Source: an uncultured Bdellovibrionales bacterium (GTDB lineage Bacteria; Patescibacteriota; Minisyncoccia; Moranbacterales; UBA11712). From it: a stretch of DNA of 50,094 nt. Shown here piece by piece: positions 2,122 to 49,228 of the stretch; within the stretch, counting starts at the first letter, position 1; each line of letters begins with the position of its first letter. A program made the translations under genes and the position numbers. Below the pieces are notes generated by a model. That model was given only the letters and a program-made list of their open reading frames with translations, was not told the DNA's origin and did not search any database. The stretch covers positions 36,003-86,096 of the forward strand of contig CAZIWW010000001.1 of the NCBI GenBank assembly GCA_964543275.1, in the 5' to 3' direction.

Positions 2122-3800
2122 TAATTAATATTGATCACAAAAAAATCTATCTCGCTGCCGGGTTGAGAAATCACTTTCATAGTTATAGCATTGGAAAAAA
2201 CTGCTCTTATTTTATTTTCTATGCCCTTATCATAATTCATTAAAACTACTTTAGCTATAGGCTTCAAGCTGGCGGGATTAAAATTTGGATCGAGGTAGCT
2301 GATACTCGGTGTCTTAGAATAAGTTAACAACTTGATCACGTGAGCCGAGATTGGCAATCCGTCGTCCATTGTTTTTCCGCCGCCGTTAACAACCACATAC
2401 TTGTTAATATCTTCCGGTAATTCATTGAGATAGGCGGCCATCTCCGTAAAGTTCTGATTGAAAGCTTGACGGACTTCAAGACTTTGGCCCCAGTCTATAA
2501 AATATCTTTTCACGGAAACGAACCCGCTCCAGGTGATAGATAAAATTAAAAAGATATAGATTACTGTTTTGAGATTAGCGCTTTTAATTTTGTCAGTTTG
2601 CCTAAAAACCAGCTCGATAAAGCAAGCGGATATAAGCAAGACCGCGGGAAGCGCGCCGATAACGCGGAGTGAATGGGGGAGACCTTCGTAAGTTAAAATT
2701 CCCGGAAGAAGCATAACGGCAAACCAAGATAAAAGCAAAACGGTGATCGCAAGATTATCGTTGTGTTTTCGATTTTTAATTCTTTGATACATTAAGTGAA
2801 AAAATTGCCAAGCAAGATAACCGAGTCCGGCTAGAAAAAACAAGCCGATTATGAATTGGAGCTCTGGCTGGGAAGGCAGGTTGTGCCGCCAGTTTTGGTC
2901 TCCGTGAAAATTAAAAGATCCTAAATTTAGAGCGGCGCTGATTCCCAAAGCTTTAAAGAGATGACCTTGATTTACTTCCGGATTTAGCACCGAGACGCTG
3001 CCGGTTCTGGCACTGAAATGTTCAGGATGCGAATAGAAATCTGCCAGCATCGGAGAAGCTGTTAGAAGCGCGAGTAGTGTAAACACGGCAATTTCTTTCC
3101 AATGATTTTTTAGAAAGTTTTTCTTGGCTGCGATTAAGGCGGCCAGCAGGGCTATTAAAATAAGCGGAGCTATGCGGAAGGCGATATAAGTATGGATTCC
3201 CAGGCCGAAGAAAACACCGGCTAAAATATAATTGTATAATTTTTTGGTTCGCAGGCCGCGGAGCAGGAAGTAGAACGAGAAAACCAAGACGAACGGGAGC
3301 ATAATAGCCCGAAAGGCGATGCGGCTGAAGTTGAGATGCCAAAAGGAAGTAGCGGTTAAAAATCCGGCGATGGCGCCTGCTCGCCAGCCGCCGAACAATT
3401 CCCTGGCCAAAAGAATCATTCCCAAAACGGTAAAAATCCCGAAAGCGGCCGACCATATCCGAAGCGTTGCCGCGCTGACGCCGAACAGCTTAAATCCCAA
3501 GGCGATAAGATTTATAAACAATCCCTCCCGGCCGTAGTTGTTTTCGTAAAAAAGTTTCCAGTGGCTGGCCTCGTTGGCTTGGATAGCGTCGGTTCCGTGA
3601 ATGGCTTCGTCTGGATAAACTCCAGGAGGCAAACTCTCAAGGTGATAAATTCTAACAAATAAGGCAACGAACAAAATAATTCCCACAAGAACCGGGTAGG
3701 CATATTTTTTGTATTTCAGCCAATCTGTGGATTTGCTTCGTTCCTTTCTGTGGTCAAATTTAGTTTTTCCCCTCGATACTTTTTTGGTATTTTTTTTCAT
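2121..3800 (-). CDS. GT-C fold glycosyltransferase, ArnT/PMT-like, second tandem copy
   Basis: 559-aa multi-TM ORF. Loop motif PGVYPDEAIHG follows TM1. Same architecture as 61-1953. Confidence 0.7.
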   Translation of the reverse strand: MKKNTKKVSRGKTKFDHRKERSKSTDWLKYKKYAYPVLVGIILFVALFVRIYHLESLPPGVYPDEAIHGTDAIQANEASHWKLFYENNYGREGLFINLIALGFKLFGVSAATLRIWSAAFGIFTVLGMILLARELFGGWRAGAIAGFLTATSFWHLNFSRIAFRAIMLPFVLVFSFYFLLRGLRTKKLYNYILAGVFFGLGIHTYIAFRIAPLILIALLAALIAAKKNFLKNHWKEIAVFTLLALLTASPMLADFYSHPEHFSARTGSVSVLNPEVNQGHLFKALGISAALNLGSFNFHGDQNWRHNLPSQPELQFIIGLFFLAGLGYLAWQFFHLMYQRIKNRKHNDNLAITVLLLSWFAVMLLPGILTYEGLPHSLRVIGALPAVLLISACFIELVFRQTDKIKSANLKTVIYIFLILSITWSGFVSVKRYFIDWGQSLEVRQAFNQNFTEMAAYLNELPEDINKYVVVNGGGKTMDDGLPISAHVIKLLTYSKTPSISYLDPNFNPASLKPIAKVVLMNYDKGIENKIRAVFSNAITMKVISQPGSEIDFFVININ

Positions 3801-12730: not shown

Positions 12731-12790
12731 CTATAAATCCCAATGATAAAATCCCAATGTCAAATAAAAATCCAAATCCCAATGATAAAA
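12731..12790. repeat. Left inverted-repeat arm of four-helix-bundle gene cassette 1
   Basis: CTATAAATCCCAATGATAAAATCCCAATGTCAAATAAAAATCCAAATCCCAATGATAAA. Complementary to 13167-13205. Also encodes the N-terminus MSNKNPNPNDKK. Confidence 0.65.
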
Positions 12791-13155
12791 AGTACGATCT
12801 TTTAGGGGGAACAGCTAAATTTGGCGAGGATGTTATTGATCTCGCGGGGACTTTAGGTAAGAATGAAATCAATCGGCCACTAATAAGCCAAGGGATAAGG
12901 TCTTCTACGAGCATTGGCGCTAATTACATGGAAGCTAATGCGGCTGGGTCACGGAAGGACTTCGAGTATAAAATAACTTTGTGTAAAAAAGAGGCTAAAG
13001 AAACGATGCGCTGGTCGCGGATGTTGGCTAGAGCTAATCCAGAAAAGAAAGATGAAATTAGAAAGCTCTGGAAAGAAGCTCAAGAGCTAGTTTTTATCTT
13101 CTCAGCTATTCTTAATAGTTCGAGGAAGAAAGAAAAGCAGAGAAAGGTAAAGTAG
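12757..13155 (+). CDS. Four-helix-bundle protein (23S rRNA intervening-sequence protein / Avd-like family)
   Basis: Start moved to ATG 12757. Motifs IRSSTSIGANYMEANAAGSRKDFEYKITLCKKEAKETMRW match the TIGR02436/PF05635-type pattern as recalled. Confidence 0.75.
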   Translation: MSNKNPNPNDKKYDLLGGTAKFGEDVIDLAGTLGKNEINRPLISQGIRSSTSIGANYMEANAAGSRKDFEYKITLCKKEAKETMRWSRMLARANPEKKDEIRKLWKEAQELVFIFSAILNSSRKKEKQRKVK

Positions 13156-13166
13156 ATATCAATTAA

Positions 13167-13205
13167 GATATTGGATTGGATATTGGGATTTTGGAATTGG
13201 GATTT
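13167..13205. repeat. Right inverted-repeat arm of four-helix-bundle gene cassette 1
   Basis: GATATTGGATTGGATATTGGGATTTTGGAATTGGGATTT. Its reverse complement matches ATAAATCCCAAT / AAAATCCCAAT in the left arm. Confidence 0.65.
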
Positions 13206-13211
13206 ATTACA

Positions 13212-15758: not shown

Positions 15759-15762
15759 CGGT

Positions 15763-15891
15763 AAATTCAAAATTCTAAGCACTAAATCCTAAACAAATCC
15801 AAATATCAAAATCCGAATTTTCAAAACATTCTGTATTTTGTTATTTGAATTTTGATATTATTTAGGATTTGGAATTTAGAGCTTTGGATTT
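15763..15891. repeat. Hairpin element without an ORF, AAATCC family, arms of about 60 nt
   Basis: Left arm AAATTCAAAATTCTAAGCACTAAATCCTAAACAAATCCAAATATCAAAATCC... pairs with right arm ...GATATTATTTAGGATTTGGAATTTAGAGCTTTGGATTT. Short loop near 15828-15832. Confidence 0.6.
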
Positions 15892-15913
15892 ATTTAAGAG
15901 GGGAGGTGAAAGT

Positions 15914-27427: not shown

Positions 27428-27524
27428 CTCTACGAATTACGAATCTCATACGAATATACGAACACAATTTTTTTCGTAATTCGTATATTCGTAGAGCGTC
27501 AGCGCGTTCGTAATTCGTAGAGAG
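27428..27524. repeat. TACGAAT-family hairpin element in the mraZ leader
   Basis: CTCTACGAATTACGAATCTCATACGAATATACGAA (27428-27462) pairs with TTCGTAATTCGTATATTCGTAGAG (27473-27496) and TTCGTAATTCGTAGAGAG (27507-27524). Confidence 0.7.
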
Positions 27525-27969: not shown

Positions 27970-28090
27970 AAATGTCAAATTAAAAATTTAAAAGCTCAAA
28001 TGTCAAATCAAATCCAAAATTCGAAGATAAAAAATTTAGTCGTTTGAATTTTGGATTTAGTTTGGCGTTTGGATTTTGAAATTTGGATTT
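27970..28090. repeat. Hairpin element, AAATCCAAA family, between mraZ and rsmH
   Basis: ...CAAATCAAATCCAAAATTCGAAG pairs with CGTTTGAATTTTGGATTTAG...GGATTTTGAAATTTGGATTT. There is a 13-nt exact complement, AAATCCAAAATTC. Confidence 0.6.
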
Positions 28091-28098
28091 ATAGCAGT

Positions 28099-29034
28099 AT
28101 GGTTCACAAGTCAGTATTGCTAGGGGAGGCAATTGAAAATTTAAACCTTAAGCGGGGAGATATCGTGATAGACGGGACGCTGGGTAGCGGTGGGCATATG
28201 GTTGAAATTCTAAAAAGAGTAATGCCTGGAGGAAAATTAATCGGTATCGACTGGGACGAAAGAGCGATTTTAAAATTCAAGAAAAGACTGCGGGAGGATG
28301 ATATCCTTATTCCAAAAAGAGATCTGATTTTAGTGAACGACAATTACGCGAATATAGATAGCATTCTTAGGGGGCTCGGTGTAAAAACTGCGGACGCTGT
28401 TTTATTGGATTTAGGATTCAGCTCTGATCAAATTGAAAACGCTGAAAGGGGATTTAGTTTTCTGAAGGATGGGAATTTGGATATGCGCTATTCTCCTGAA
28501 ACGCAAAGTCGAACGGCCGCTAACGTAGTTAATGATTATTCCCAAGAGGAATTAAAAGATATTTTTCAAAGATTTGGCGAAGAGAGATTTTCCGGCAGGA
28601 TTGCCAGAGCTATAGTTGAGTCTCGCAGAGCCAAGCCTATTAAAAGAACTTTAGAGTTAGTTGAAGTAATTAGACGGGCGATTCCTAAAAAGTTTGCGAG
28701 AGGCAGAATTCATCCGGCCACGCGGGTTTTCCAGGCTTTAAGAATTGAGGTAAACCGGGAGCTTGAGAATTTAGAGAAATTTCTCGACGAAGTTTTAAAT
28801 AATCTGACTAGCGGGGGGAGGTTAGTCATTATCAGCTTTCATTCGCTGGAAGACAGAGTAGTTAAAAATTTTTTTAAGGCGAATAAAGATCGGTTAAAAA
28901 TTGTAACTAAAAAGCCGATTGCTCCTTCGCGGGAGGAAATTGCATACAATCCGAGAAGCAGAAGCGCGAAGTTGAGAGCGGCGGAGAGGATCTCTACGAA
29001 TTACGAATCAAGTACGAATATACGAATAAACTGA
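28099..29034 (+). CDS. rsmH: 16S rRNA (cytosine1402-N4)-methyltransferase RsmH
   Basis: MVHKSVLLGEAIE..DGTLGSGGH..., HSLEDR and RSRSAKLRAAE. Start moved to ATG 28099. The last 14 codons are encoded by a TACGAAT repeat arm. Confidence 0.9.
   Translation: MVHKSVLLGEAIENLNLKRGDIVIDGTLGSGGHMVEILKRVMPGGKLIGIDWDERAILKFKKRLREDDILIPKRDLILVNDNYANIDSILRGLGVKTADAVLLDLGFSSDQIENAERGFSFLKDGNLDMRYSPETQSRTAANVVNDYSQEELKDIFQRFGEERFSGRIARAIVESRRAKPIKRTLELVEVIRRAIPKKFARGRIHPATRVFQALRIEVNRELENLEKFLDEVLNNLTSGGRLVIISFHSLEDRVVKNFFKANKDRLKIVTKKPIAPSREEIAYNPRSRSAKLRAAERISTNYESSTNIRIN
28992..29027. repeat. TACGAAT-family left arm inside the rsmH 3' end
   Basis: CTCTACGAATTACGAATCAAGTACGAATATACGAAT. A degenerate partner, ATTCGTTCATCGTATTGATCCGTAATTCGCG, lies near 29078-29108. 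Confidence 0.65.
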
Positions 29035-29154
29035 CTGGAAGCTTCGTTTTATTTAAGGATTATATCGTGGGAGCCCTATTCGTTCATCGTATTGATCCGT
29101 AATTCGCGCAGAAAAAAACATAAAAACAAAATTAACCTAGGGGGCTCGAAGAAG

Positions 29155-29517: not shown

Positions 29518-29712
29518 TTTAGATTGTCTGCTGATTATCCCGCTATAGCGGGACCCCGCCGCGGCGGTGGCGAATCTTTTACGAATATACGAATCTTGCT
29601 TCAAGATAAAGGCTTTGTTATATAATTCTGTTTTTTCTAGATCTGTATGTTCATACTTAATTCGCCTGCTTGTCGGCAGGAAGGTAATTCATAGACAATC
29701 TATTTGCAATGA

Positions 29713-36546: not shown

Positions 36547-37614
36547 ATGAACGCGCGCAAAGAACTCGAAAATTACAAGAAAATAGTCGATAAAAAGTTA
36601 GCCGAATATTTTACTGAGAAAATAAAGGAAGCAAAAAAGGTTAGTCCTTTAGCGGTGCAAGCGGTGAAGAACATTCGTGACATGGTGCTGGCTGGCGGCA
36701 AGCGTGTTCGGGCGGCTTTTATGTATTGGGGCTATAAAGCGGCTGGCGGCAAGGAAGTGGATAAGATAGTCGAGGCTTCGATGAGTATTGAGTTGACTCA
36801 TATTTTTCTTCTTATTCATGACGATATTATCGACCGTGACGATTTTCGCCACGGGATAAAATCTATCCATAAAAGGTATGAGAGTTTGGCGCGAAGGTTT
36901 TATAAAAAAGTTGACGCAGAACATTTTGGACACTCAATGGGAATGATTGTTGGGGATATGGCGGCGGCGTTGGGAAACGAAATTATTTTTAATTCTCGGT
37001 TTTCCGCGGAGAATATTTTAATGGCGCTTGATAAACTGCAGGACATTGTATCAGTCACGGTTACTGGAGAAATGATGGATATAGTTCTGGAAGCTAGAGG
37101 CAGAGCGTCCGAGAAAGAAATTCTCAAAGTTCATAAGGACAAGACAGCAAGGTACACCGTCGAAGGGCCGCTTCACCTGGGAGCGTTGTTGGCTGGGGCC
37201 GATAGGAAAGTTTTAAGGGATTTAAGCAATTACGCTGTTCCAGTCGGTACGGCTTTTCAAATTCAGGACGACATTCTGGGGGCTTTTGGGAACGAAAAGA
37301 AATTAGGCAAGCCTGTTTGCAGCGATCTTAGAGAAGAAAAGCAGACTTTGCTGATAGTTAAAACTTTAGAAAGAGGAAATAAGAGCCAAAGACGGTTAAT
37401 TAATAATTTATTGGGAAGCAAGAATTTAACATTAAAAGACATAGAAGATTTCCGCGAAGTTATCCGTGAGACTGGATCATTGAAATATTCAAGGAATTTA
37501 GCAAGAAAGTTAGTTGTCAAAGGGAAGAAAGATTTGCATAAGTCTGCTATCGGCAAAGAGGCTAGGGAATTTTTAGCTGGAATTGCGGACTATATTGTAA
37601 ATCGAGAGATTTAA
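36547..37614 (+). CDS. Polyprenyl diphosphate synthase (trans-IPPS, GGPP/FPP synthase-like)
   Basis: First Asp-rich motif LIHDDIIDRDDFRHG and second FQIQDDILG. Confidence 0.85.
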   Translation: MNARKELENYKKIVDKKLAEYFTEKIKEAKKVSPLAVQAVKNIRDMVLAGGKRVRAAFMYWGYKAAGGKEVDKIVEASMSIELTHIFLLIHDDIIDRDDFRHGIKSIHKRYESLARRFYKKVDAEHFGHSMGMIVGDMAAALGNEIIFNSRFSAENILMALDKLQDIVSVTVTGEMMDIVLEARGRASEKEILKVHKDKTARYTVEGPLHLGALLAGADRKVLRDLSNYAVPVGTAFQIQDDILGAFGNEKKLGKPVCSDLREEKQTLLIVKTLERGNKSQRRLINNLLGSKNLTLKDIEDFREVIRETGSLKYSRNLARKLVVKGKKDLHKSAIGKEAREFLAGIADYIVNREI

Positions 37615-37727
37615 AATCAGCCGTGGTGATTAAGGTAGTGATGCGCTCGCGGTTTTATTGCGGCCGGGCGATTCATTGCCGTAAGGCGGCGGTATACTTT
37701 GTTCTAATATTGTGCTATACTGCAACT

Positions 37728-38297
37728 ATGAAAATCGGAAAGAAAATTTTTGAGATAGTTTTTCACGCTCGGGGCGGGCAGGGCGCTAAGACGGCGGCGG
37801 AGATTTTGGCCCAAGCGGCGCTTCGAGAGGGTAAATTTGTTCAAGCTTTTCCGGATTACGGACCCGAGCGGAGTGGCGCTCCCATGCGGACTTACGTTCG
37901 AATTTCAGATGAGCCAATTCTCACGCGCGAGCCGGTGGTTGATCCCGATCTGGTAGTAGTTTTAGACGAGACTCTTTTGGATTCGGTAAAAGTTACTAAT
38001 AATCTGGACGAGGACGAGATTATGATAGTCAATACCGCGAAAGACAGAAACGCTGTTTCTCAAAAGACAGGATATAAGGGAAACATTTATCCCGTTGATG
38101 CCGCAAGAATATCCATGGAAATTATTGGTCAGCCTCGTCCCAATACGGCTATCTTGGGAAAACTGGTTAAGATTACTGAAGTAGTGAAGCTTGATAATGT
38201 GGTTGAGGTGTTTAGGGAAAAATATATTGGAAAGATTGGAGAGGAAATTACGGAAAAAAATGTTTTGGCGATTGAGAAAGCGTACGATAGTTTGTAA
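37728..38297 (+). CDS. porG: Pyruvate:ferredoxin oxidoreductase, gamma subunit
   Basis: FHARGGQGAKTAAEILAQAALREGKFVQAFPDYGPERSGAP. Start moved to ATG 37728. Confidence 0.8.
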   Translation: MKIGKKIFEIVFHARGGQGAKTAAEILAQAALREGKFVQAFPDYGPERSGAPMRTYVRISDEPILTREPVVDPDLVVVLDETLLDSVKVTNNLDEDEIMIVNTAKDRNAVSQKTGYKGNIYPVDAARISMEIIGQPRPNTAILGKLVKITEVVKLDNVVEVFREKYIGKIGEEITEKNVLAIEKAYDSL

Positions 38298-38298
38298 T

Positions 38299-38418
38299 CT
38301 CTACGAATTACTAAACAATTACAAAAATACGAAAACTTATAAACACCTATCCCCTAAAACTACAACTTATTTAATGTGCGATTTCGTATTTTTTGTTAAA
38401 TTTAGTAGTTCGTAGAAA
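38299..38418. repeat. Hairpin element (TACGAA variant) filling the porG-porD spacer
   Basis: CTCTACGAATTACTAAACAATTACAAAAATACGAAAAC pairs with GCGATTTCGTATTTTTTGTTAAATTTAGTAGTTCGTAGAAA. Loop of about 40 nt. Confidence 0.6.
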
Positions 38419-38426
38419 ATTGTACT

Positions 38427-38687
38427 ATGGATTGGCAAAACATCGAAAAAGGCGCTGTCATCAAGCACGATATCAAAAAGTCGCCTCGTACCGGCGACTG
38501 GCGATATATGAAACCCGAAGTTGATAAGAAGAAATGCATTGGCTGCGGGCAGTGCGTTTCTCATTGCCCGGAAGGCTGTATAACTTTAGGCAAAGATGGC
38601 AAGGCCGAGATTAATTATGATTTTTGCAAAGGCTGCGGAGTGTGCGCGCAGATTTGCCCGAGAAAAGCGATTAAGATGAGGAAGTAG
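38427..38687 (+). CDS. porD: Pyruvate:ferredoxin oxidoreductase, delta subunit (2x[4Fe-4S])
   Basis: CIGCGQCVSHCP and CKGCGVCAQICP cluster motifs; 86 aa. Confidence 0.8.
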   Translation: MDWQNIEKGAVIKHDIKKSPRTGDWRYMKPEVDKKKCIGCGQCVSHCPEGCITLGKDGKAEINYDFCKGCGVCAQICPRKAIKMRK

Positions 38688-38718
38688 TATCTAGTATATT
38701 GTATCTTGCATTTTGTAT
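38688..38718. repeat. Left inverted-repeat arm of four-helix-bundle gene cassette 2
   Basis: TTGTATCTTGCATTTTGTAT matches 19 of 20 positions of the reverse complement of 39091-39125. Confidence 0.65.
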
Positions 38719-39091
38719 GGTTACGGATAATAAGAAGATAAAATCATTTACCGATTTATATGCTTGGCAAGAAGCGCATAAATTAGTTTTAATGGTTTAT
38801 GCGGAAACTGAAAAATTTCCTAAAAGAGAAATTTTTGGTTTGACTGTCCAGATAAGACGGTCAGTTGTTTCTATTACATCTAATATCGCGGAAGGCTTTA
38901 ACAGAAATGCTTCTAAGGATAAATGTCAGTTTTATTCTATGGCGCACGGATCATTAACTGAATTGCGAAATCAGTTGCTAGCGACAAGAGATGTCGGGTA
39001 TTTAAGCCAAGCAATTTTTAATAAGCTTGCCGATCAAACGGTTGTTGTTGCTAAGTTGATTAATGGCTTGAGAAAAATAAGAAACAAATGA
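38717..39091 (+). CDS. Four-helix-bundle protein (23S rRNA IVS protein / Avd-like family) inserted in the por operon
   Basis: FTDLYAWQEAHKLVLMVYAETEKFPKREIFGLTVQIRRSVVSITSNIAEGFNR...GSLTELRNQL is the canonical family pattern. Confidence 0.8.
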   Translation: MVTDNKKIKSFTDLYAWQEAHKLVLMVYAETEKFPKREIFGLTVQIRRSVVSITSNIAEGFNRNASKDKCQFYSMAHGSLTELRNQLLATRDVGYLSQAIFNKLADQTVVVAKLINGLRKIRNK

Positions 39092-40269
39092 TACAAGATA
39101 CAAAATACAAGATACAAAATACGAAACAGCTCGCTCTCACCGGCGGGGCCGCTGCCGCCGAAGCTCTCAAGCAAATTAACCCGGATGTGATGCCGGTTTA
39201 TCCTATCACGCCACAGACGCCGATTATAGAAACTTTTGCTAAGATGGTGGCTGATGGCTTAGCCGATACGGAGATTATGGAAGTGGAATCGGAACACAGC
39301 GCTATGAGCGCGGCGGTTGGCGCGCAAGCGGCCGGAGCGCGGGCGATGACAGCCACTAGTTCCCAGGGACTAGCGCTAATGAGCGAGATTCTTCCCATTG
39401 CTTCTGGGTTGCGCTTGCCGATATTAATGTTTATTAGCGCGCGGGCTTTGAGCGCTCCCATAAATATCCATTGCGATCATCAGGATGTAATGGCTGTTCG
39501 AGATTTGGGATGGATTCAAATTTTTTCGGAGAGCGCACAGGAAGTTTACGACAACGCTTTTATAGCTCTTCGTCTGGCGGAAAAAACGCGTCTGCCGGCG
39601 ATGGTAATTATGGATGGTTTTACTACCTCGCATAGCGTAGAAAATTTAGAAGTTTTGGATACAGCCGCGGCCAGAAAATTTATCGGTGAATATAAGCCGG
39701 AAAATTATTTGCTGGACACGGATAACCCGGTAACTTTTGGGCCGGTGGGGCTTCCTAATTCGTATTTTGAATTCAAGCGAGCGCAGATCGAGGCAATGGA
39801 TGGGGTGATTGGGGAATATATAGAAATTTGCAGAAATTATGTTGAAGTTAGCGGACGCGATTATGATATATTCGAAGGCTATAACTTGGATGACGCTGAA
39901 AAAGTTATTGTTGTTGCCGGTTCCACAGCCGGGACAGCTAAAGTGGTTGTGGATGAATTGCGTGAGAGAGGAGAAAAAGTAGGACTACTTAAGATAAAAT
40001 TGTTTAGGCCGTTTCCGTACGGGGAAATAAAAAAAGCGCTTGAAGGCAAAAAACGTGTTGCCGTTTTGGATAGATCAGTTTCGTTTGGGAGTGTCGCCCC
40101 GCTTTATGGCGAGATAGTAAACTCGACTTTTCGGGATGATGTTCAGTCTTGCATTTTTGGATTAGGCGGACGTGAGATTTTTGGGGAGGATATTGCAAGG
40201 GTGTTTGAAGAAATGGGAGATAGAGGAGATCGGGAGCGCAAAGTGGTTAATTATATTGGATTAAAGTGA
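39088..40269 (+). CDS. porA: Pyruvate:ferredoxin oxidoreductase, alpha subunit
   Basis: LTGGAAAAEALKQINPDVMPVYPITPQTPIIE. The ATG overlaps the preceding stop (ATGA). Confidence 0.85.
   Translation: MIQDTKYKIQNTKQLALTGGAAAAEALKQINPDVMPVYPITPQTPIIETFAKMVADGLADTEIMEVESEHSAMSAAVGAQAAGARAMTATSSQGLALMSEILPIASGLRLPILMFISARALSAPINIHCDHQDVMAVRDLGWIQIFSESAQEVYDNAFIALRLAEKTRLPAMVIMDGFTTSHSVENLEVLDTAAARKFIGEYKPENYLLDTDNPVTFGPVGLPNSYFEFKRAQIEAMDGVIGEYIEICRNYVEVSGRDYDIFEGYNLDDAEKVIVVAGSTAGTAKVVVDELRERGEKVGLLKIKLFRPFPYGEIKKALEGKKRVAVLDRSVSFGSVAPLYGEIVNSTFRDDVQSCIFGLGGREIFGEDIARVFEEMGDRGDRERKVVNYIGLK
39091..39125. repeat. Right inverted-repeat arm of four-helix-bundle gene cassette 2
   Basis: ATACAAGATACAAAATACAAGATACAAAATACGAA. 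Also encodes the porA N-terminus (IQDTKYKIQNTK). Confidence 0.65.
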
Positions 40270-40272
40270 TTT

Positions 40273-40371
40273 CTCTACGAATTACGAATTTTGTACGAAT
40301 ATACGAATGAATGTATAAAAGCAATACATTCATAAAGTAATCTATTTGTGTGTGATTCGTAATTCGTAGAG
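40273..40371. repeat. TACGAAT-family nested hairpin filling the porA-porB spacer
   Basis: CTCTACGAATTACGAATTTTGTACGAATATACGAAT ... ATTCGTAATTCGTAGAG. Inner stem ATGAATGTAT / ATACATTCAT. Confidence 0.7.
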
Positions 40372-40384
40372 ATTAGGCATAACC

Positions 40385-41296
40385 TTGAATAAAAATTTGG
40401 TTACAAAATTTGCTCCCGGCCATGCGACTTGCGCGGGGTGCGGGATACCGGCAATTGTGAGAACAGTGCTAGGCGCGACCGACGATCCGGTGGTAGTAAT
40501 TAACGCTACAGGGTGTTTGGAGGTAACATCTACTCTTTATCCTTATACCGCTTGGAAAGTTCCTTACATTCACAACGCTTTTGAAAACGCGGGGGCGACG
40601 GCAGCGGGAGTGGAAACGGCTTGCCGGATGCTGGTTAAAAGAGGGAAGATTCCCAAGGATAAAGAGATAAAGTTTGTGGTTTTTGGGGGAGATGGCGGGA
40701 CTTATGATATTGGATTGCAAAGTTTATCGGGAGCGCTTGAACGAGGACATAAATTCTTGTATGTTTGTTATGACAACGAAGCCTATATGAACACCGGTGG
40801 GCAGAGAAGCGGCGCTACTCCTCGTGGAGCCAGCACTACTACGACTCCGGCTGGCAAGATAAACTACGGTAAAAAGCAGAAGAGAAAAGATTTAATGTCG
40901 ATTGTGATCGCGCATCACATAAAATATGCCGCTCAAGCCAATGTGGCATATCTTCAGGACTTAAAGATGAAAGCTCAAAAGGCTTTTGAAGCCGAAGGAC
41001 CTAGTTTTCTACTGGTACTCCAGCCTTGCACCAATCAATGGAAGTTTCCTGCTTCGGATTACGTGCGTGTTGGAAAGCTGGCAACGGAGACGAATTTTTG
41101 GCCTTTGTATGAATACCTTGACGGCAAATACAAAATCAACTGGGCTACTGAAAATCCCAAGCCGGTTGAAGAATTTTTAAAAACGCAAGGGAGATTTAAG
41201 CATTTATTTAAATCCGGCGGAGAAGAAATAATTTCACAGATTCAGGAAGAGATTGAAAAAGATTGGAGTAAGTTAGTGGAATTGGCGGAGGTTTAG
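40385..41296 (+). CDS. porB: Pyruvate:ferredoxin oxidoreductase, beta subunit (TPP-binding)
   Basis: TTG start. HATCAGCG and GGDGGTYDIG..YDNEAYMNTGGQ motifs. Confidence 0.85.
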   Translation: MNKNLVTKFAPGHATCAGCGIPAIVRTVLGATDDPVVVINATGCLEVTSTLYPYTAWKVPYIHNAFENAGATAAGVETACRMLVKRGKIPKDKEIKFVVFGGDGGTYDIGLQSLSGALERGHKFLYVCYDNEAYMNTGGQRSGATPRGASTTTTPAGKINYGKKQKRKDLMSIVIAHHIKYAAQANVAYLQDLKMKAQKAFEAEGPSFLLVLQPCTNQWKFPASDYVRVGKLATETNFWPLYEYLDGKYKINWATENPKPVEEFLKTQGRFKHLFKSGGEEIISQIQEEIEKDWSKLVELAEV

Positions 41297-41387
41297 ATTT
41301 TAGATAATGAGTAGCACTAGTCATTAGCAAAAGCAAAATGAAATAATATTATTTATTTTTCGTATTAGTTATTTGTAAAAAAGGTTT

Positions 41388-41579
41388 ATGTCTAAAATCA
41401 AGATTAATGAAGATCTCTGCATCGGTTGCGGGACTTGCGAAGCGATGTGTCCGGATGTCTTTAAAATTGAGAATGGTAAGGCAAAGGTGTATAGTGAAAA
41501 CTGCAAAGATTGCGAGGATTGCAAGTTGGATGAAATTGTAAGTAGTTGTCCGGTGAATGCGATAACGGTGGAAGAGTAA
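41388..41579 (+). CDS. Small ferredoxin
   Basis: 63 aa. CIGCGTCEAMCP ... SSCPVNAI. Confidence 0.75.
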   Translation: MSKIKINEDLCIGCGTCEAMCPDVFKIENGKAKVYSENCKDCEDCKLDEIVSSCPVNAITVEE

Positions 41580-41580
41580 G

Positions 41581-41660
41581 ACCAAAAATCAAAAACCAAA
41601 TACCAAAAAATACAAATCAAAAACTAATTTTTTGTATTTTTATCTTTATTGTTGTTTTTT
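41581..41660. repeat. A-rich periodic-motif segment with an AT-only hairpin
   Basis: AAAAATCAAAAACCAAATACCAAAAAATACAAATCAAAAAC, with AAAAATACAAA / TTTGTATTTTT pairing. Confidence 0.4.
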
Positions 41661-41694
41661 TACCCTTTAACTTAATAATTTAAGCGCGATATTT

Positions 41695-42996
41695 ATGCTT
41701 ACCCACGAAAAAAATGTAATAGATGATGGAAAATTGAGTGGCAGCTATAAAAGAATTCTAATTACCTCCATCATTATCACTTTCTTTATGTCCTCTTTTC
41801 TGGGAGCGGTTTTTGGTTTTATGGGGGCTATGGTTGGTCAGCAGAAAGTTTTTTCCTGGCTTCCCGGATTTTTTCAGGAAGAGCGCGACGAGTTAATTGA
41901 CAGAAGCGATGATAGTAGCGCCAGTGAAACTCATAAATTAATCGAAGAAGAATCGGCGGTGACAGCCGTAGTTGAAAAAGCTTCGCCGGCAGTGGTTAGT
42001 ATCATTGTCACCAAGGACATTCCTAAGATACAGGAGTTTTTTTTCGATCCGTTTGAATCCGATCCATTTTTTAATCCGTTCGGCTCCAGAGACAAGAATC
42101 GGAATGATGCAAATGAAGGGGAGACAGAGAAACGGGAAATTGGAGGCGGGTCGGGCTTTATTGCTTCGAAGGACGGGCTGGTAGTTACTAATAAGCATGT
42201 AGTTTCAGATCAAAGCGCTGATTATACGGTTATGACCAATGATGGCAAAAAGTACGAAGCGCAAGTTATGGCCATTGATCCAATGAATGATATCGCTATC
42301 TTGAAAATAAATGCTAATAATCTCCCAGTGTTAGAGTTTGGAGATTCTGACAGCCTAAAAATTGGGCAGACGGTTATAGCTATAGGAAATTCTCTAGGTG
42401 AATTTAGAAATACTGTAAGTAAGGGAATTATCTCTGGGCTTAAGAGGTCGCTGACGGCTGGAACCGGGACTGGTGAACTGGAGACATTGAGCGAAGTCAT
42501 TCAGACTGACGCGGCTATCAATCCGGGAAATTCCGGCGGCCCGCTGCTTAACATTGATGGCCGGGTAATTGGAGTAAATGTGGCTATGGCTCAAGGAGCG
42601 GAGAACATCGGTTTTGCCCTGCCTGTAAATTTAGTTAAAAAAGACATTAATAGTGTTAAGAGTAAAGGAAAAATTGTGCAGCCGTTTTTGGGAGTGCGCT
42701 ATGTTATAGTTAATAAGCAAATCCAAAAGGAAAATAATCTTCCTTATGATTACGGCGCTTTGATTTTGCGCGGCCAGCGAATATCCGACTTAGCGGTGGT
42801 GCCCGGCAGTCCTGCTGACAAAGCTGGAATTGTGGAGAATGACATAATTTTGGAAGTGAACGGAAAAAAAGTCAACAATAAGACCCCACTCGGCAGTTTA
42901 ATAGCTAAATATAATGTAGGCGATACGGTAAATCTTAAAATTTGGCACAAGGGAGAAGAGAAGACGGTATCAGCGAATTTGGAAGAAAGAAAGTAA
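41695..42996 (+). CDS. HtrA/DegP-family serine protease with a PDZ domain
   Basis: N-terminal TM. Triad contexts VTNKHVV, NDIAILKI and GNSGGPLLN. C-terminal PDZ (GSPADKAGIVENDIILEVNG). Confidence 0.85.
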   Translation: MLTHEKNVIDDGKLSGSYKRILITSIIITFFMSSFLGAVFGFMGAMVGQQKVFSWLPGFFQEERDELIDRSDDSSASETHKLIEEESAVTAVVEKASPAVVSIIVTKDIPKIQEFFFDPFESDPFFNPFGSRDKNRNDANEGETEKREIGGGSGFIASKDGLVVTNKHVVSDQSADYTVMTNDGKKYEAQVMAIDPMNDIAILKINANNLPVLEFGDSDSLKIGQTVIAIGNSLGEFRNTVSKGIISGLKRSLTAGTGTGELETLSEVIQTDAAINPGNSGGPLLNIDGRVIGVNVAMAQGAENIGFALPVNLVKKDINSVKSKGKIVQPFLGVRYVIVNKQIQKENNLPYDYGALILRGQRISDLAVVPGSPADKAGIVENDIILEVNGKKVNNKTPLGSLIAKYNVGDTVNLKIWHKGEEKTVSANLEERK

Positions 42997-43004
42997 AAAA
43001 TCTT

Positions 43005-43025
43005 TTTAGGGATCCGATCCCTAAA
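43005..43025. repeat. REP-like 21-nt palindrome, upstream copy (inverted orientation)
   Basis: TTTAGGGATCCGATCCCTAAA. Matches 20 of 21 positions of the reverse complement of the other two copies. Confidence 0.7.
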
Positions 43026-43042
43026 TTCCTCAAACTAATGAA

Positions 43043-43696
43043 ATGAGAAGGAAAGTAGAGCTTGTCAGCGGTCAATATTATCATGTTTATAACCGAGGTG
43101 TTGAGAAACGCGATATCTTTTTGGATGATTCTGACTATCTTCGCTTTTTGAAGTCCTTGAAGTGCTTCAATCAGGAAGATCCTATCTTCAGCTTGTTTTG
43201 GAATAACATTAAAAAGAGAAATTTAGGGGTCGGATCCCTAAAATCAAGGAAGTTGGTAGATATCGTAGCGTATTGCCTGAATCCTAACCATTTCCATTTA
43301 CTCTTAAAACAGGTAATCGACGGTGGCATTTCTGAATTTATGAGAAGGTTGGGTACAGGCTATACAGGTTATTTTAATCACAAATATCAACGATCGGGTG
43401 TTTTGTTTCAAGGAAGATTTAAATCAATTCATATAAGTTCAAATTCGTATCTTTTATATTTGTCTGCTTACATAAATGAAAATAATTTTATTCATGGATA
43501 CACAGAAAATAGCCGGAATTGGAAATATTCAAGTTATTCCGATTACATAGGGGAAAGGCAGGGAGAGTTGTGCAACAAAGATATTATTCTTGATCAGTTC
43601 GGATATGACTTCAAAGGATATGAAGAATTTTCCAGGGAAAACGCTTTATATCTTAAGGAGAGAAAGGAAGATGAGAAATATTTATTGGAAAACTGA
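43043..43696 (+). CDS. IS200-like / REP-associated (RAYT-like) Y1 HUH transposase
   Basis: YHVYNRGVEKRDIF, the HUH motif NPNHFHLLL, LFQGRFKS, and a Tyr-containing helix LSAYINENNFIHG. No tnpB partner. Confidence 0.7.
   Translation: MRRKVELVSGQYYHVYNRGVEKRDIFLDDSDYLRFLKSLKCFNQEDPIFSLFWNNIKKRNLGVGSLKSRKLVDIVAYCLNPNHFHLLLKQVIDGGISEFMRRLGTGYTGYFNHKYQRSGVLFQGRFKSIHISSNSYLLYLSAYINENNFIHGYTENSRNWKYSSYSDYIGERQGELCNKDIILDQFGYDFKGYEEFSRENALYLKERKEDEKYLLEN
43222..43242. repeat. REP-like 21-nt palindrome, copy inside the transposase CDS
   Basis: TTTAGGGGTCGGATCCCTAAA, identical to 43700-43720. Translated in frame as LGVGSLK. Confidence 0.7.
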
Positions 43697-43699
43697 CCT

Positions 43700-43720
43700 T
43701 TTAGGGGTCGGATCCCTAAA
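43700..43720. repeat. REP-like 21-nt palindrome, downstream copy
   Basis: TTTAGGGGTCGGATCCCTAAA, 4 nt after the transposase stop and 6 nt before the clpB ATG. Confidence 0.7.
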
Positions 43721-43725
43721 TTTTT

Positions 43726-46332
43726 ATGGACTTAAATAGGTTTACTCTAAAATCCCAAGAAGCCTTGCAAGGAGCGCATCAGTTAGCTCAAAGCCAGAGT
43801 CAAAATGTTGTGGATGTTTTGCATTTGCTTTATGTGCTTATTACCCAGGAAGAAAGTGTTGTTCCAGCCATCCTGGATAAATTGAATGTAAAAAGGGATG
43901 AGTTGAAAAACGATATTTTTTCCGAGATAGAAAAAATTCCCAAAGTTTCTAGCACGCAGGTTTATTTATCTTCTGAAATGGCGGGCGTTCTGCAGGAGTC
44001 TTTCCGCGAAGCCCAAAGTTTAGGAGATAGGTTTGTTAGTACCGAGCATTTATTTCTAGCATTGCTAAATGTGGCTAGTCGTGCTAAAAAATTTTTAGAA
44101 GAAAGCGGCATCAATCGTAGCGAAGTCTTAAAAGTTATGAAAGAAGTAAGGGGAAACCAAAGCGTTGATAGTCCGTCGCCGGAAGGGAAATATCAGGCTT
44201 TGGAAAAATACACCATTAATCTTACCCGCGAAGCCAGTCAGGAAAAATTGGATCCGGTAATTGGAAGAGAAGAGGAAATCCGAAGAGTTATGCAAGTTCT
44301 TACGCGACGCACCAAGAATAATCCGGTGCTTATTGGAGAAGCTGGGACGGGTAAGACTGCCATTGTTGAAGGTTTAGCCCAAAGAATAGCGACCGGCGAT
44401 GTTCCTGAAAGCTTAAAGGGCAGGGAAATTTTGGCTTTGGACTTGGGTATGATTTTGGCCGGTTCGAAATTCCGTGGAGAATTTGAGGAAAGATTTAAAG
44501 CTGTCCTAAACGAGATCGAAAAGTCGGAAGGAAAATATATCTTGTTTATTGACGAGCTGCACACTTTAGTTGGAGCCGGAGCTATTGAGGGAGCAATGGA
44601 CGCCTCTAATATGCTTAAGCCGGCTTTAGCCAGAGGAAAACTGCGGGCTATCGGCGCGACTACGCTCAAAGAATATCAAAAGTATATTGAAAAGGATGCG
44701 GCTTTTGAGCGACGCTTTCAGCCTGTGCTGGTTAAAGAACCGACGGTTGAAGATGCCATTGCCATTCTCCGCGGTCTTAAGGAGAAGTATGAAGTTCATC
44801 ACGGGGTGCGCATCACTGACGGGGCTATCGTGGCGGCGGCCAATCTTTCTAACCGCTATATTACCGATCGCTTTCTGCCTGACAAAGCGGTTGATCTTAT
44901 AGACGAAGCTACTTCCGCTCTCCGAATGGAAATTGACAGCATGCCTGGGGAAATAGATAATCTGGAGCGTGAGAAAAGAAAACTAGAGATAGAAAGAGAA
45001 GCTTTAAAGAAGGAAAAAGATGAAGAGTCGAAGAAGAAAGTGAAAGAAATTGAAAAAAAATTAGCCGATGTGAAAGAAAAGGCTAATAGATTAAAGCTGC
45101 AGTGGAAGAACGAGAAGGATCTTATAACTAATATCAGAGGCTATAAAAGTGAAATCGATCGCTTAAAAGGAGAGTCTGACGTTTTGGAGCGCAGAGGCGA
45201 GCTAAGCAAGGTGGCCGAAATTCGCTACGGGAAAATCCCAGAGCTTAAAAAGAAAATAAAAAAAGAGCAGGGAAAATTAAAAGTTCTGCAGAAGAATAAT
45301 CCTATTCTCAAGGAGGAGATTACTGAAGAAGATGTTGCCAAAGTGGTTTCCCGATGGACCGGCGTTCCGGTCGCCAAAATGCTGGAAGGAGAGATGGAAA
45401 AGTTAGCTAAAGCTGAAAAAGCCTTAAGTTTAAGAGTAATCGGGCAGGAGGAAGCTGTTTCGGCCGTGTCAAACGCTCTTCGCAGGTCGCGAGCTGGTAT
45501 TGCTGAAGAGAGCAGACCTGTCGGATCTTTTATTTTTCTCGGTCCTACCGGAGTAGGCAAGACAGAGTTAGCCAAAGCGCTGGCGGAATTTCTTTTTAAC
45601 GATGAAGACGCAATGATAAGGGTCGATATGAGCGAATATATGGAGCAGCATAGCGTAGCTAAGATGATTGGATCGCCTCCCGGTTATGTGGGGTACGAGG
45701 AAAGCGGGCAGTTGACGGAAAAAGTAAGAAGACGTCCCTATAGCGTGATACTTTTTGACGAGATTGAAAAAGCCCATCCGGATGTTTTTAATATGTTGCT
45801 TCAAATTTTGGATGACGGGCGTCTTACTGACGCCAAGGGGCGCGTGGTTAGTTTTAAGAACGCGGTTATAATTATGACTTCTAATGTGGGAAGTGACATA
45901 ATTTATAAAATGCGGGAGATTGGCTTCAAGAACGAAAGAAAAAGAGAAATCTTAAAAGAAGAGGAGATGAAAGAAAGGGTTATGCGAGCTCTTCGGGAAA
46001 AGTTTAAACCAGAATTTTTGAATCGAGTGGATGAGATAATTATTTTCCATCCTCTGAACACCGGGCAAATTAAGAAGATTATCGATCTTCAATTGAATCA
46101 AGTTAAGCGGAGATTGGCTGGCAGAAATATCCAGTTGGAAGTAACATCGGCGGCGAAAGAGTTGCTTGTCAGGAAGGGGTTCGACCCGGTTTTCGGAGCC
46201 AGGCCTCTGAAGCGAACGATCCAAAATTTAGTCCTTGACGAGTTGGCTCTTAGGATTGTAGAAGGAAAGGTTAAAGAAGGAGACAAGGTGAAGGTGGATG
46301 CTCGAGGCGGGAAAATAGTCATAAGGGAATAA
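43726..46332 (+). CDS. clpB: ATP-dependent chaperone ClpB
   Basis: 868 aa. Clp N domain, two AAA+ modules (GEAGTGKTA; GPTGVGKTE) and a long middle coiled coil. Confidence 0.95.
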
Positions 46333-49106: not shown

Positions 49107-49228
49107 AAATTTCTAATTAATCTAATTTCTAATTGATCTAATCAATACCTAAGCGCTAATGCCCAATTGCTGTTTGGTTATTGGGATTTATTTAGGTCAA
49201 TTAGATTAATTAGAGCAATTAGAAATTT
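49107..49228. repeat. Hairpin element, AATTAGAT family
   Basis: AAATTTCTAATTAATCTAATTTCTAATTGATCTAAT... pairs with ...AGGTCAATTAGATTAATTAGAGCAATTAGAAATTT. The loop holds CCCAAT/ATTGGG. The element abuts the recR stop. Confidence 0.65.

Follow-up and report, generated by a model that had tools for sequence, protein, structure and literature searches.

Why should every spacer between the subunit genes of a metabolic operon hold a palindrome, and why should one of these palindromes enclose a gene of its own? The question is raised by a window of 50,094 nt (the whole stretch of DNA that was analysed, to which all positions below refer) in contig CAZIWW010000001.1 of assembly GCA_964543275.1, from an uncultured, ultra-small bacterium with a GTDB lineage in the Patescibacteriota. 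The region encodes the four-subunit pyruvate:ferredoxin oxidoreductase (POR) operon, in which porG/porC, porD, porA, and porB are followed by a small ferredoxin gene. All three spacers from porG to porB hold palindromes: two are hairpins without an open reading frame (ORF), and the third, between porD and porA, holds a gene of the 23S rRNA intervening sequence (IVS) protein family, called IVP here, between inverted heptamer arrays (Table 1). The explanation favoured here, with somewhat more confidence than doubt, is that the porD-porA insert is an IVS-type IVP cassette in an mRNA operon, and that it persists because the arms supply the stop and start codons and maintain translational coupling.

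The IVP of the porD-porA spacer was assigned by hidden Markov models to PF05635 (115.9 bits, E 1.3e-33; cut-off 33.8) and TIGR02436 (107.1 bits, E 5e-31; cut-off 24), and phmmer matched it to PDB entry 2GSC, the homopentameric XCC0516, which has five chains (E 4.6e-19). The AlphaFold model of the monomer (pLDDT 93.3) predicted four helices, at residues 15-31, 36-62, 66-92, and 98-123, and a Foldseek search with this predicted structure gave TM-scores of 0.82-0.95 to 2GSC and 0.75-0.89 to 2RLD (BT_0352); Avd (4DWL) was also matched. The RxxxSxxxNxxE motif, represented by R48-S52-N56-E59, was invariant across 30 homologues. In the comparison with the sequence L081, 32 substitutions were found over 8.3 kb, 7 of which fall in the IVP gene and right arm (38850-39108); the final 100 nt of IVP contain five of these 7. 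The between-strain ratio of nonsynonymous to synonymous substitution (dN/dS) was 0.54 for IVP and 0.29 for porA, both values coming from very few substitutions.

The two arms of the cassette are inverted, with 88-92% complementarity over 25 nt. Folding of the RNA from 38680 to 39130 revealed that the minimum free energy (MFE) structure and the centroid structure both close the cassette by a terminal stem of 22 bp (38687-38708/39094-39115; z -4.5). At the right end, the porA ATG (39088-39090) overlaps the IVP stop codon TGA (39089-39091) in an ATGA. The porA frame opens only at 39064, and the ATG at 39088 is the sole ATG, GTG, or TTG ahead of the conserved ALTGG motif. With no alternative in-frame start before this motif, the right arm must encode the N-terminus of PorA, MIQDTKYKIQNTKQ.

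Much of this architecture had been described in an earlier note on this DNA, and the description was confirmed. Folds or inverted repeats were found in all three por spacers, as it had claimed, and in-silico folding recovered its hairpin in the porG-porD spacer and its nested TACGAAT hairpin in the porA-porB spacer (energies are given below). The four-helix-bundle gene between inverted arms was substantiated by the family matches, and the 19/20 complement quoted for the arms was correct. The overlap of the porA ATG with the IVP stop at the arm edge was verified as the only in-frame start, and the proposal that the insertion supplies the PorA start codon applied more widely, the right arm giving the start and N-terminus in 11 of 11 cassette-bearing por operons.

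The por IVP has approximately 4,000 homologues at E <= 1e-10, and the named ones among the best 120 were all from Patescibacteria. A set of 76 distinct IVP cassettes was gathered from genome and metagenome contigs. Almost all of them carry inverted arrays with a unit of 7 nt (364 of 382 intervals) and 2-10 units per arm (medians 4 and 3), and no heptamer arrays were present in the ORF interiors. The left array leads directly into the start codon (...GTATG, GAATTATG, GTAGTATG), and the right array starts at the stop codon (TGATAC..., TAATTC...). Heptamer-armed enclosure from start to stop is a general design of IVP genes in Patescibacteria. The mean energy of the arm-arm duplex over the 76 cassettes was -27.4 kcal/mol versus -14.7 kcal/mol for shuffled arms. 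The four-base core of the unit (GTAT, GAAT, GTAG, GGAAT, and others) varied among cassettes and followed the IVP tree, with complementarity being kept. An arm of five repeats to suit a pentamer was considered and dismissed, as the copy number showed no preference for five.

The cassettes are also arranged regularly with respect to their neighbours. Flanking genes on the same strand as IVP outnumbered those on the opposite strand by 38 to 3 upstream and by 53 to 3 downstream. The first start of the downstream ORF overlapped the IVP stop or was at most 45 nt away, inside the arm, in 50 of 66 cassettes. C is scarce in the left arms, and triplets reading as stop codons in the sense direction numbered 3.36 per 35 nt in left arms versus 1.96 in right arms (p 6e-7). 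The genes 3' of the cassettes were unrelated to one another, including an mraY-like transferase gene, topA, carB, a TraG-like ATPase gene, atpD, tmk, pilM, AMMECR1, and genes of the type IV secretion system (T4SS). In L092, L109, and L122, the genes 3' of IVP looked pilin-like by eye (hydrophobic segment, for example, GFTIIELVVALAVAII or FTLMELLI); a Pfam search of the L092 protein returned no family. If the first in-frame start is taken for these pilin-like proteins, the IVP right arm codes for their N-termini (for example, MFDTKYKIQNTKYNL-).

A tblastn search of the window with the por IVP detected that one copy only, and a second, divergent IVP cassette lies at a distance from the por operon. 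It has an inverted repeat of 33 nt with 85% complementarity, and its ORF was assigned to PF05635 (E 1.4e-11, 44.9 bits; cut-off 33.8). This cassette is located directly 5' of a gene for a VirD4/TraG-like coupling protein (13176/13212-15758). The first in-frame TTG of the VirD4/TraG-like gene is inside the right arm of the cassette, and its ATG is 5 nt past the arm.

IVP was found at the porD-porA junction in 11 distinct por operons (the window, L086, L097, L095, L009, L090, L093, L094, L099, L101, and L111), with PorA 57-74% identical to that of the window. The first or only in-frame PorA start was in or at the right arm in all 11, and the ATGA overlap was present in 4. The arm-encoded PorA N-termini share an NTK motif (MIQNTRYKIQDTKY-, MILNTKKQ-, MIHNTKN-, and MKKNTKYQIPNTKY-). 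Operons L001, L003-L005, and L032, with PorA 71-77% identical to that of the window, have no IVP, and their spacers are 1-25 nt long. Their porD-porA junction is compact (TAAAATAATG), and PorA begins MTDKKKNLALTGG at its own ATG, 4-5 nt past the porD stop. Since these closest IVP-less operons have compact spacers, the spacers of the window are insertions relative to that state.

In a neighbour-joining tree of PorA, cassette-bearing and empty operons were intermingled in one Parcubacteria clade, and no cassette was found outside this clade; in the IVP tree, the por-linked IVPs shared a single subclade with a few IVPs of other contexts. L008 (3940-3990), the sister of the cassette-bearing L009 (3540-3640), has no IVP and keeps the arm-encoded PorD tail SSSIKYQV, which indicates a deletion footprint left by cassette loss. 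Between L101 (1150-1720) and L111, the cassette and approximately 100 nt of flank were 97-100% identical, and the por genes only 70-88%; the synonymous divergence (dS) was 0.04 for IVP and 1.57 for PorA, and identity decayed gradually into porA. A recent homologous-recombination tract is therefore indicated. Such comparisons show that loss of the cassette occurs, as does its movement between por operons through recombination. The amino acid identity of IVP was equal to or higher than that of PorA in most operon pairs, indicating that the IVP protein is maintained by selection.

The earlier note had held that the operon was colonised three times and had suggested a search for empty sites. Compact empty junctions were indeed found in related operons, and the view of the spacers as insertions relative to compact IVP-less relatives stood. 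Recent independent events did not: all three elements were present in the five strain-level contigs (99.4-99.9% nucleotide identity, identical PorD), which differed only by point substitutions, so that the empty-site polymorphism sought within this population was not seen among these near-identical strains. Distant operons moreover have in common with the window the IVP cassette and a TACGAAT-type element 5' of porB, the latter as a full hairpin in L097 and as the right half only in L090 and L009. Instead of three recent hits, the picture of the por junction is that of a cassette long resident, repeatedly lost, and now and then exchanged laterally through the conserved por flanks.

Other features were observed at por junctions of the relatives. 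The PorD tail is arm-encoded in L086 and L009, and L009 also holds heptamers (3425-3470; ACCAACG ACCAACG ACTAACG ACTAAAA) inside the porD coding sequence, corresponding to an in-frame loop relative to other PorD proteins. An unrelated ORF of about 230 codons lies between porD and porA in L002 (3290-3995). The porG-porD spacer is occupied by an ORF that looks GIY-YIG nuclease-like by eye in L022 (3375-3700) and by a ligand-gated-channel/solute-binding gene in L090 (1173-2207). Between porA and porB, two small K/E-rich ORFs were found in L010 (5085-5495), and about 700 nt in L095 (4045-4760). It appears that the por spacers are hot spots for insertion.

The two ORF-less palindromes of the por operon were stable in folding analysis. 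The nested porA-porB hairpin (40272-40372) had an MFE of -46 kcal/mol (z -9.2), and the porG-porD hairpin (38300-38416), whose two helical segments comprise about 30 bp, had an MFE of -30.1 kcal/mol (z -7.1); for both, 0 of 200 shuffles were as stable. Both belong to a TACGAAT family with five copies in 50 kb, the others being at 27428, 28992, and 49826, and all five have the common terminus CTCTACGAATTACGAAT. The 38-nt arms are conserved and the loops, of 11-148 nt, are mutually unrelated; the left arms of four copies agree at 32-35 of 38 positions, and that of the porG-porD copy matches the family consensus at 27 of 38. Three strain single-nucleotide polymorphisms (SNPs) fall in the porG-porD stem and all three keep pairing through G-U, a number too small to serve as evidence for selection at the RNA level. 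Element ends (ATTCGTAGAG) are located 6-12 nt 5' of the start codons of mraZ, porD, porB, and recR (minus strand).

Other palindromes with 7-nt units were found in spacers of the window, namely the AAATCC type at 15762-15899 and 27984-28084 and the TCTAATT type at 49107-49228. The AAATCC-type hairpins have the same type of arm as the second IVP cassette (12733-13207). The ORF-less hairpins belong to interspersed families with the same kind of heptamer arms as the IVP cassettes, and we conjecture from this arm design that they are most likely ORF-less relatives of the cassettes. About one third of the window spacers of at least 40 nt are strongly structured; therefore, the occupation of three of three por spacers is notable, not extraordinary, and the decoration of the por operon is one instance of a genome-wide habit. 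In the cluster of mraZ (27532), mraW/rsmH (28051), an ftsL-like gene (29092), and the next gene (29713), a palindromic element is present in every spacer, as in por; these elements are TACGAAT-type (27428 and 28992), AAATCC-type (27984-28084), and a structured spacer (29518-29712; z -5.2). The window further contains an ORF for an IS200-like Y1 transposase resembling RAYT, the transposase associated with repetitive extragenic palindromic (REP) sequences (43043-43696; PF01797), with the palindrome TAGGGATCCGATCCCTA at 43007, 43224, and 43702 (0.08 expected by chance). A link of this transposase to the heptamer palindromes was rejected, its flanking and internal palindrome being unrelated to them.

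How the cassette might persist can be outlined as follows. The cassette would be co-transcribed with the por genes, having no promoter or terminator of its own; counts of promoter-like and intrinsic-terminator-like sites at the elements of the por operon were those expected from shuffling, and the hairpins are without T-runs. It would be transparent to translation, in that the stop of the upstream cistron lies at or within the left arm, and the right arm is open in frame and would provide the downstream start. The stem between the arms may mask the initiation regions of IVP and porA until ribosomes terminating at porD melt it. Ribosomes terminating at the IVP stop would then re-initiate at the overlapping or nearby porA ATG, and this re-initiation would restore the coupling from porD to porA that empty operons get from a 4-nt spacer. 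With porA dependent on the arm for its start codon, the cassette could presumably be removed only by a deletion that leaves porA a usable start, which would help explain its long residence. The ORF-less hairpins would form stable intercistronic hairpins in the transcript.

Other explanations were weighed against the same evidence. We consider it unlikely that three mobile palindromes inserted recently and independently into an essential operon and that the hairpins now act as RNA processing sites setting the subunit ratio. Compact empty spacers in close relatives agree with this account, as do the five TACGAAT copies in 50 kb, whose near-identical arms fit recent spread within the genome; the stems of the window, at 19-22 bp, are also long enough to be RNase III substrates. 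However, no presence/absence polymorphism was seen in the five strain-level contigs, operons with PorA only 57-74% identical also have the IVP cassette and the element 5' of porB, and the elements show neither target-site duplications at their ends nor a strand bias indicating a role in RNA. Slightly more doubtful is an excision like that of rRNA IVS, in which RNase III would cut the arm stem, release the IVP RNA, and split the transcript into porGD and porAB without religation, as in 23S rRNA. Such excision would suit the presence of the stem in both MFE and centroid folds, the match in architecture to Coxiella and Leptospira IVS (PMC4990558), and the occurrence of IVP ORFs in rRNA insertions of bacteria of the candidate phyla radiation (CPR) as well (PMC11270868). 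Against it stands the position of the PorA start, in the right arm or 5' of it in 11 of 11 operons, since a cut in the stem would leave a porAB RNA without a start. Frequent RNase III cleavage is unlikely because it would sever the porA start codon from the body of the gene in all of these operons; frequent cutting would also be expected to select a start shifted downstream, and the pairing showed no bias to the sense strand.

Two further accounts give IVP itself the leading part. A dedicated accessory protein or regulator of POR, kept because the enzyme needs it, would explain the same position in 11 operons, a conservation equal to or above that of PorA, and the clustering of por-linked IVPs in one subclade, but it is very improbable: many close relatives run por operons without IVP, cassettes of the same design, as well as close relatives of the IVP, are found 5' of unrelated genes (mraY-like, topA, carB, atpD, tmk, pilM, T4SS), and the second cassette of the window adjoins a VirD4-like gene. 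A role specific to POR was rejected in view of these diverse contexts. An element acting at the DNA level is also unlikely; here the heptamer arrays would be ends for recombination or transposition, like those of REP/RAYT or attC, IVP would be a nucleic-acid-binding factor that recognises them, and any effects on RNA would arise incidentally. In favour of it are the symmetric pairing, which lacks a strand bias, the tracking of IVP phylogeny by the arm core (GTAT, GAAT, GTAG, GGAAT, and others), the nesting of non-por IVPs in the por subclade, which suggests relocation, the structural relative Avd, which binds nucleic acid in the ribonucleoprotein of diversity-generating retroelements (Foldseek matches 8UBE and 8UB7), and the RAYT-like Y1 transposase in the window. 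However, the palindrome that flanks the Y1 transposase is a different one, target duplications were not observed, the surroundings of the cassettes yielded neither an integrase nor a reverse transcriptase, the single documented transfer resembles homologous recombination through por flanks, and an arm can have anywhere between 2 and 10 repeats, five not being favoured.

The favoured reading of an IVP cassette that keeps translation coupled has points against it as well. The trees were neighbour-joining trees without support values, in which repeated gain and a single gain followed by losses are not cleanly separable. As right arms are without stop codons, the heuristic that takes the first start in the open frame may over-extend the downstream genes. 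Over the 76 cassettes, arm complementarity was symmetric (sense -27.4 versus antisense -27.1 kcal/mol, p 0.87), and the ORF-less hairpins likewise had no consistent sense or antisense bias in pairing. The target of selection could therefore be DNA, with the arms as terminal inverted repeats, instead of RNA, and RNA-specific selection on the arms was rejected on these equal energies. A transposase, integrase, or reverse transcriptase adjoining the cassettes was not found. A profile of 78 IVPs detected no IVP remnants in the loops of the ORF-less hairpins (best non-self E = 3.3), so that their reading as decayed IVP genes was rejected and a cassette origin for them is a conjecture from arm design. 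Co-transcription, coupling, and stem melting are themselves steps that we infer from sequence.

The arms may have a role at the DNA level, as ends for movement or recombination. That IVP binds its own arms is a testable idea, suggested by the Avd-like fold of the model and by the co-variation of arm core and IVP lineage. Tentatively, a wider proposal may be made: the IVP cassettes and their ORF-less relatives would be an undescribed class of mobile cassettes embedded in operons of Patescibacteria, whose Avd-like IVP oligomer recognises its own arrays in RNA or DNA and controls processing, translation, or movement; their arms would deliver stops to the gene before them and starts to the gene after them, which would allow such an element to reside in essential operons, and the rRNA IVS would be one habitat of such elements.

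The features of the por region and the related elements of the window are collected in Table 1.

Table 1. Features of the por operon, IVP cassettes, and TACGAAT-family palindromes in the window.
Feature	Position	Strand	Remarks
porG/porC (gamma subunit)	37728-38297	+	PF01558 E 1.2e-39; TIGR02175 E 5e-58
ORF-less palindrome, porG-porD spacer	38299-38417	+	Diverged TACGAAT-family member, CTCTACGAATTAC...GTAGTTCGTAGA
porD (delta, 2x[4Fe-4S] subunit)	38427-38687	+	TIGR02179 E 2.7e-27; stop codon abuts IVP left arm
IVP left arm	38687-38718	+	Tandem heptamers GTATCTA GTATATT GTATCTT GCATTTT GTAT(G); runs into IVP start codon
IVP ORF, 124 aa (Avd/S23p-like four-helix bundle)	38717-39091	+	PF05635, TIGR02436
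IVP right arm	39091-39122	+	Heptamers (G)ATAC AAGATAC AAAATAC AAGATAC AAAATAC; encodes PorA residues 2-12
porA (alpha subunit)	39088-40269	+	PF01855, PF17147; PorA_Arch model alignment begins at residue 15
ORF-less palindrome, porA-porB spacer	40272-40372	+	TACGAAT family, TCTCTACGAATTACGAAT...ATTCGTAATTCGTAGAGA
porB (beta, TPP-binding subunit)	40385-41296	+	PF02775; NF008819 E 2.6e-108
Small ferredoxin gene closing the cluster	41388-41579	+	PF13370, PF00037
Second, divergent IVP cassette	12733-13207	+	ORF 12757-13155; arms ATAAATCCCAATG... / ...ATTGGGATTTAT, AAATCCCAATG units
TACGAAT palindrome 5' of mraZ	27428-27523	+	
TACGAAT element over 3' end of mraW/rsmH	28992-29100	+	Arm encodes final MraW residues
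TACGAAT palindrome, 148-nt loop	49826-50051	+	End 6 nt from recR start codon (minus strand)

The genes around the por operon (36547-46332) encode a polyprenyl synthase, the por products, ferredoxin, HtrA, the Y1 transposase, and ClpB. The start codon of porB is a TTG, 12 nt past the end of the palindrome, and relatives have an ATG at the homologous MNK. The ferredoxin gene is conserved 3' of porB in relatives (tblastn matches in L001-L007). Downstream of it, at 41586-41661, an A-rich heptamer-like run (ACCAAAA ATCAAAA ACCAAAT ACCAAAA) is followed by a weak hairpin and a T-run (z -0.8), which may be the terminator of the por operon. In a collection of species-representative genomes, the closest PorA relatives were those of Moranbacteria-like Parcubacteria (70-77% identity), and contigs with 99.4-99.9% nucleotide identity to the window were found in metagenome assemblies, for example, ENA ERZ23491060 and JGI 3300005265. 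An Rfam scan of the window gave a tRNA-Glu as the sole match at the gathering threshold and no rRNA; assignment of a hairpin to a known RNA family was discarded, as Rfam gave only chance matches to miRNA-precursor models. Membership in a defence system was likewise discarded, with no PADLOC match.

Donation of the start codon and insertion relative to compact relatives are supported by these comparisons and generalise. The 23S rRNA IVS protein family is very large and was first described in rRNA intervening sequences. It now gains a defined genetic unit, consisting of the gene and its heptamer arms, and a habitat outside rRNA, in operons of core functions, with a measurable consequence in that the start codon and N-terminus of the next gene come from the element. 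As some por operons have the cassette, others are empty or keep remnants of it, and still others hold a copy transferred recently, they form a natural comparative system in which element movement, possible binding of IVP to the arms, and possible tuning of subunit ratios by palindromes in small CPR genomes can be studied. Annotation is also affected, as arm-encoded extensions alter the predicted termini of PorA, PorD, MraW, and possibly the pilin-like proteins.

Among known systems, Avd of diversity-generating retroelements is a homologous four-helix bundle (weak match to PF22296; PHROG Avd 1.9e-8; Foldseek 4DWL and 8UBE), and relatives of Avd form nucleic-acid-binding pentamers. The NCBIfam Avd model scored 24 bits with the por IVP, below its cut-off of 80. 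No reverse transcriptase was found among the genes at 36547-46332 or in 25 other ORFs of the window that were scanned, template and variable repeats not being part of the search. With no reverse transcriptase nearby and a score below the Avd cut-off, the por cassette is probably not a diversity-generating retroelement.

REP sequences and bacterial interspersed mosaic elements (BIME) of proteobacterial operons are interspersed extragenic palindromes between co-directional genes that are transcribed as part of the operon and have been proposed to modulate mRNA stability and relative cistron expression; REP are 20-40 bp long and linked to RAYT, and one of their ends carries GTAG or CGTC as an unpaired tag (PMC3733652). 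The elements of the window are also multi-copy intercistronic palindromes between co-directional genes. They do not fit that description, differing in length (100-225 nt), heptamer arms, and unrelated loops; their GTAG is inside the stem (CTCTAC...GTAGAG) instead of being an unpaired tag, and the RAYT-like gene is flanked by TAGGGATCCGATCCCTA instead of heptamer palindromes.

Rickettsia palindromic elements and the Correia elements of Neisseria are short palindromic repeats at or in gene ends that become coding sequence or translation signals. Similarly, elements here have given rise to the N-terminus of PorA, the C-terminus of MraW, and, in L086 and L009, the tail of PorD, and as in such miniature inverted-repeat transposable elements, terminal inverted repeats are common to the five copies (arms 27-35/38 identical). 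The elements here do not fit the definition of such transposable elements: the flanks of the copies differ (TAAT/AAAA, ATTT/ATTA, CTTG/CGTC), with no target-site duplication; there is no conserved interior, the loops being unrelated and 11-148 nt long, no related autonomous transposon was identified, and one version carries a conserved non-transposase gene.

In Pleurocapsa, a PF05635 gene between cmr3 and cmr2 was read in 2013 as CRISPR-associated (PMC3936711). Like the por IVP, it is interposed in an operon, has the RxxxSxxxNxxE motif, and is separated from the following gene by a few bases, although bracketing repeats, start-codon donation, and comparative presence or absence were not described in that account; it may be the same kind of insertion. 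Neither start-codon donation nor operon-embedded IVP cassettes with heptamer arms were found described in the literature, the coverage of which was incomplete, so that novelty is not proven.

The closest counterpart is the 23S rRNA IVS. In Coxiella burnetii and Leptospira, a stem of about 28 bp around an S23p ORF is cut by RNase III, and the patchily distributed IVS are thought to spread horizontally by recombination and then to be kept vertically (PMC4990558); in CPR bacteria, IVP ORFs have been reported in rRNA insertions (PMC11270868). The por cassette is alike in placing an S23p/IVP ORF in the loop of a stem of terminal inverted repeats (about 25-30 bp), in its patchy distribution and recombination-driven spread, and probably in being transcribed within its host gene. 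It differs in several respects. The IVS are located at helix 9, 25, or 45 of 23S rRNA, whereas the por cassette is in a protein-coding operon, and heptamers in tandem array make up its arms, directly adjoining the start and stop codons. The Coxiella IVS ORF is decaying and apparently not made, whereas the IVP here is under clear purifying selection. The right arm of the por cassette also encodes the start and N-terminus of the next gene, so that a cut in the stem would harm porA. The enclosing stem and the S23p/IVP protein are thus both present, but the location is porD-porA and not a 23S rRNA gene; accordingly, the por cassette is not a member of the IVS class but a variant of it in a new habitat.

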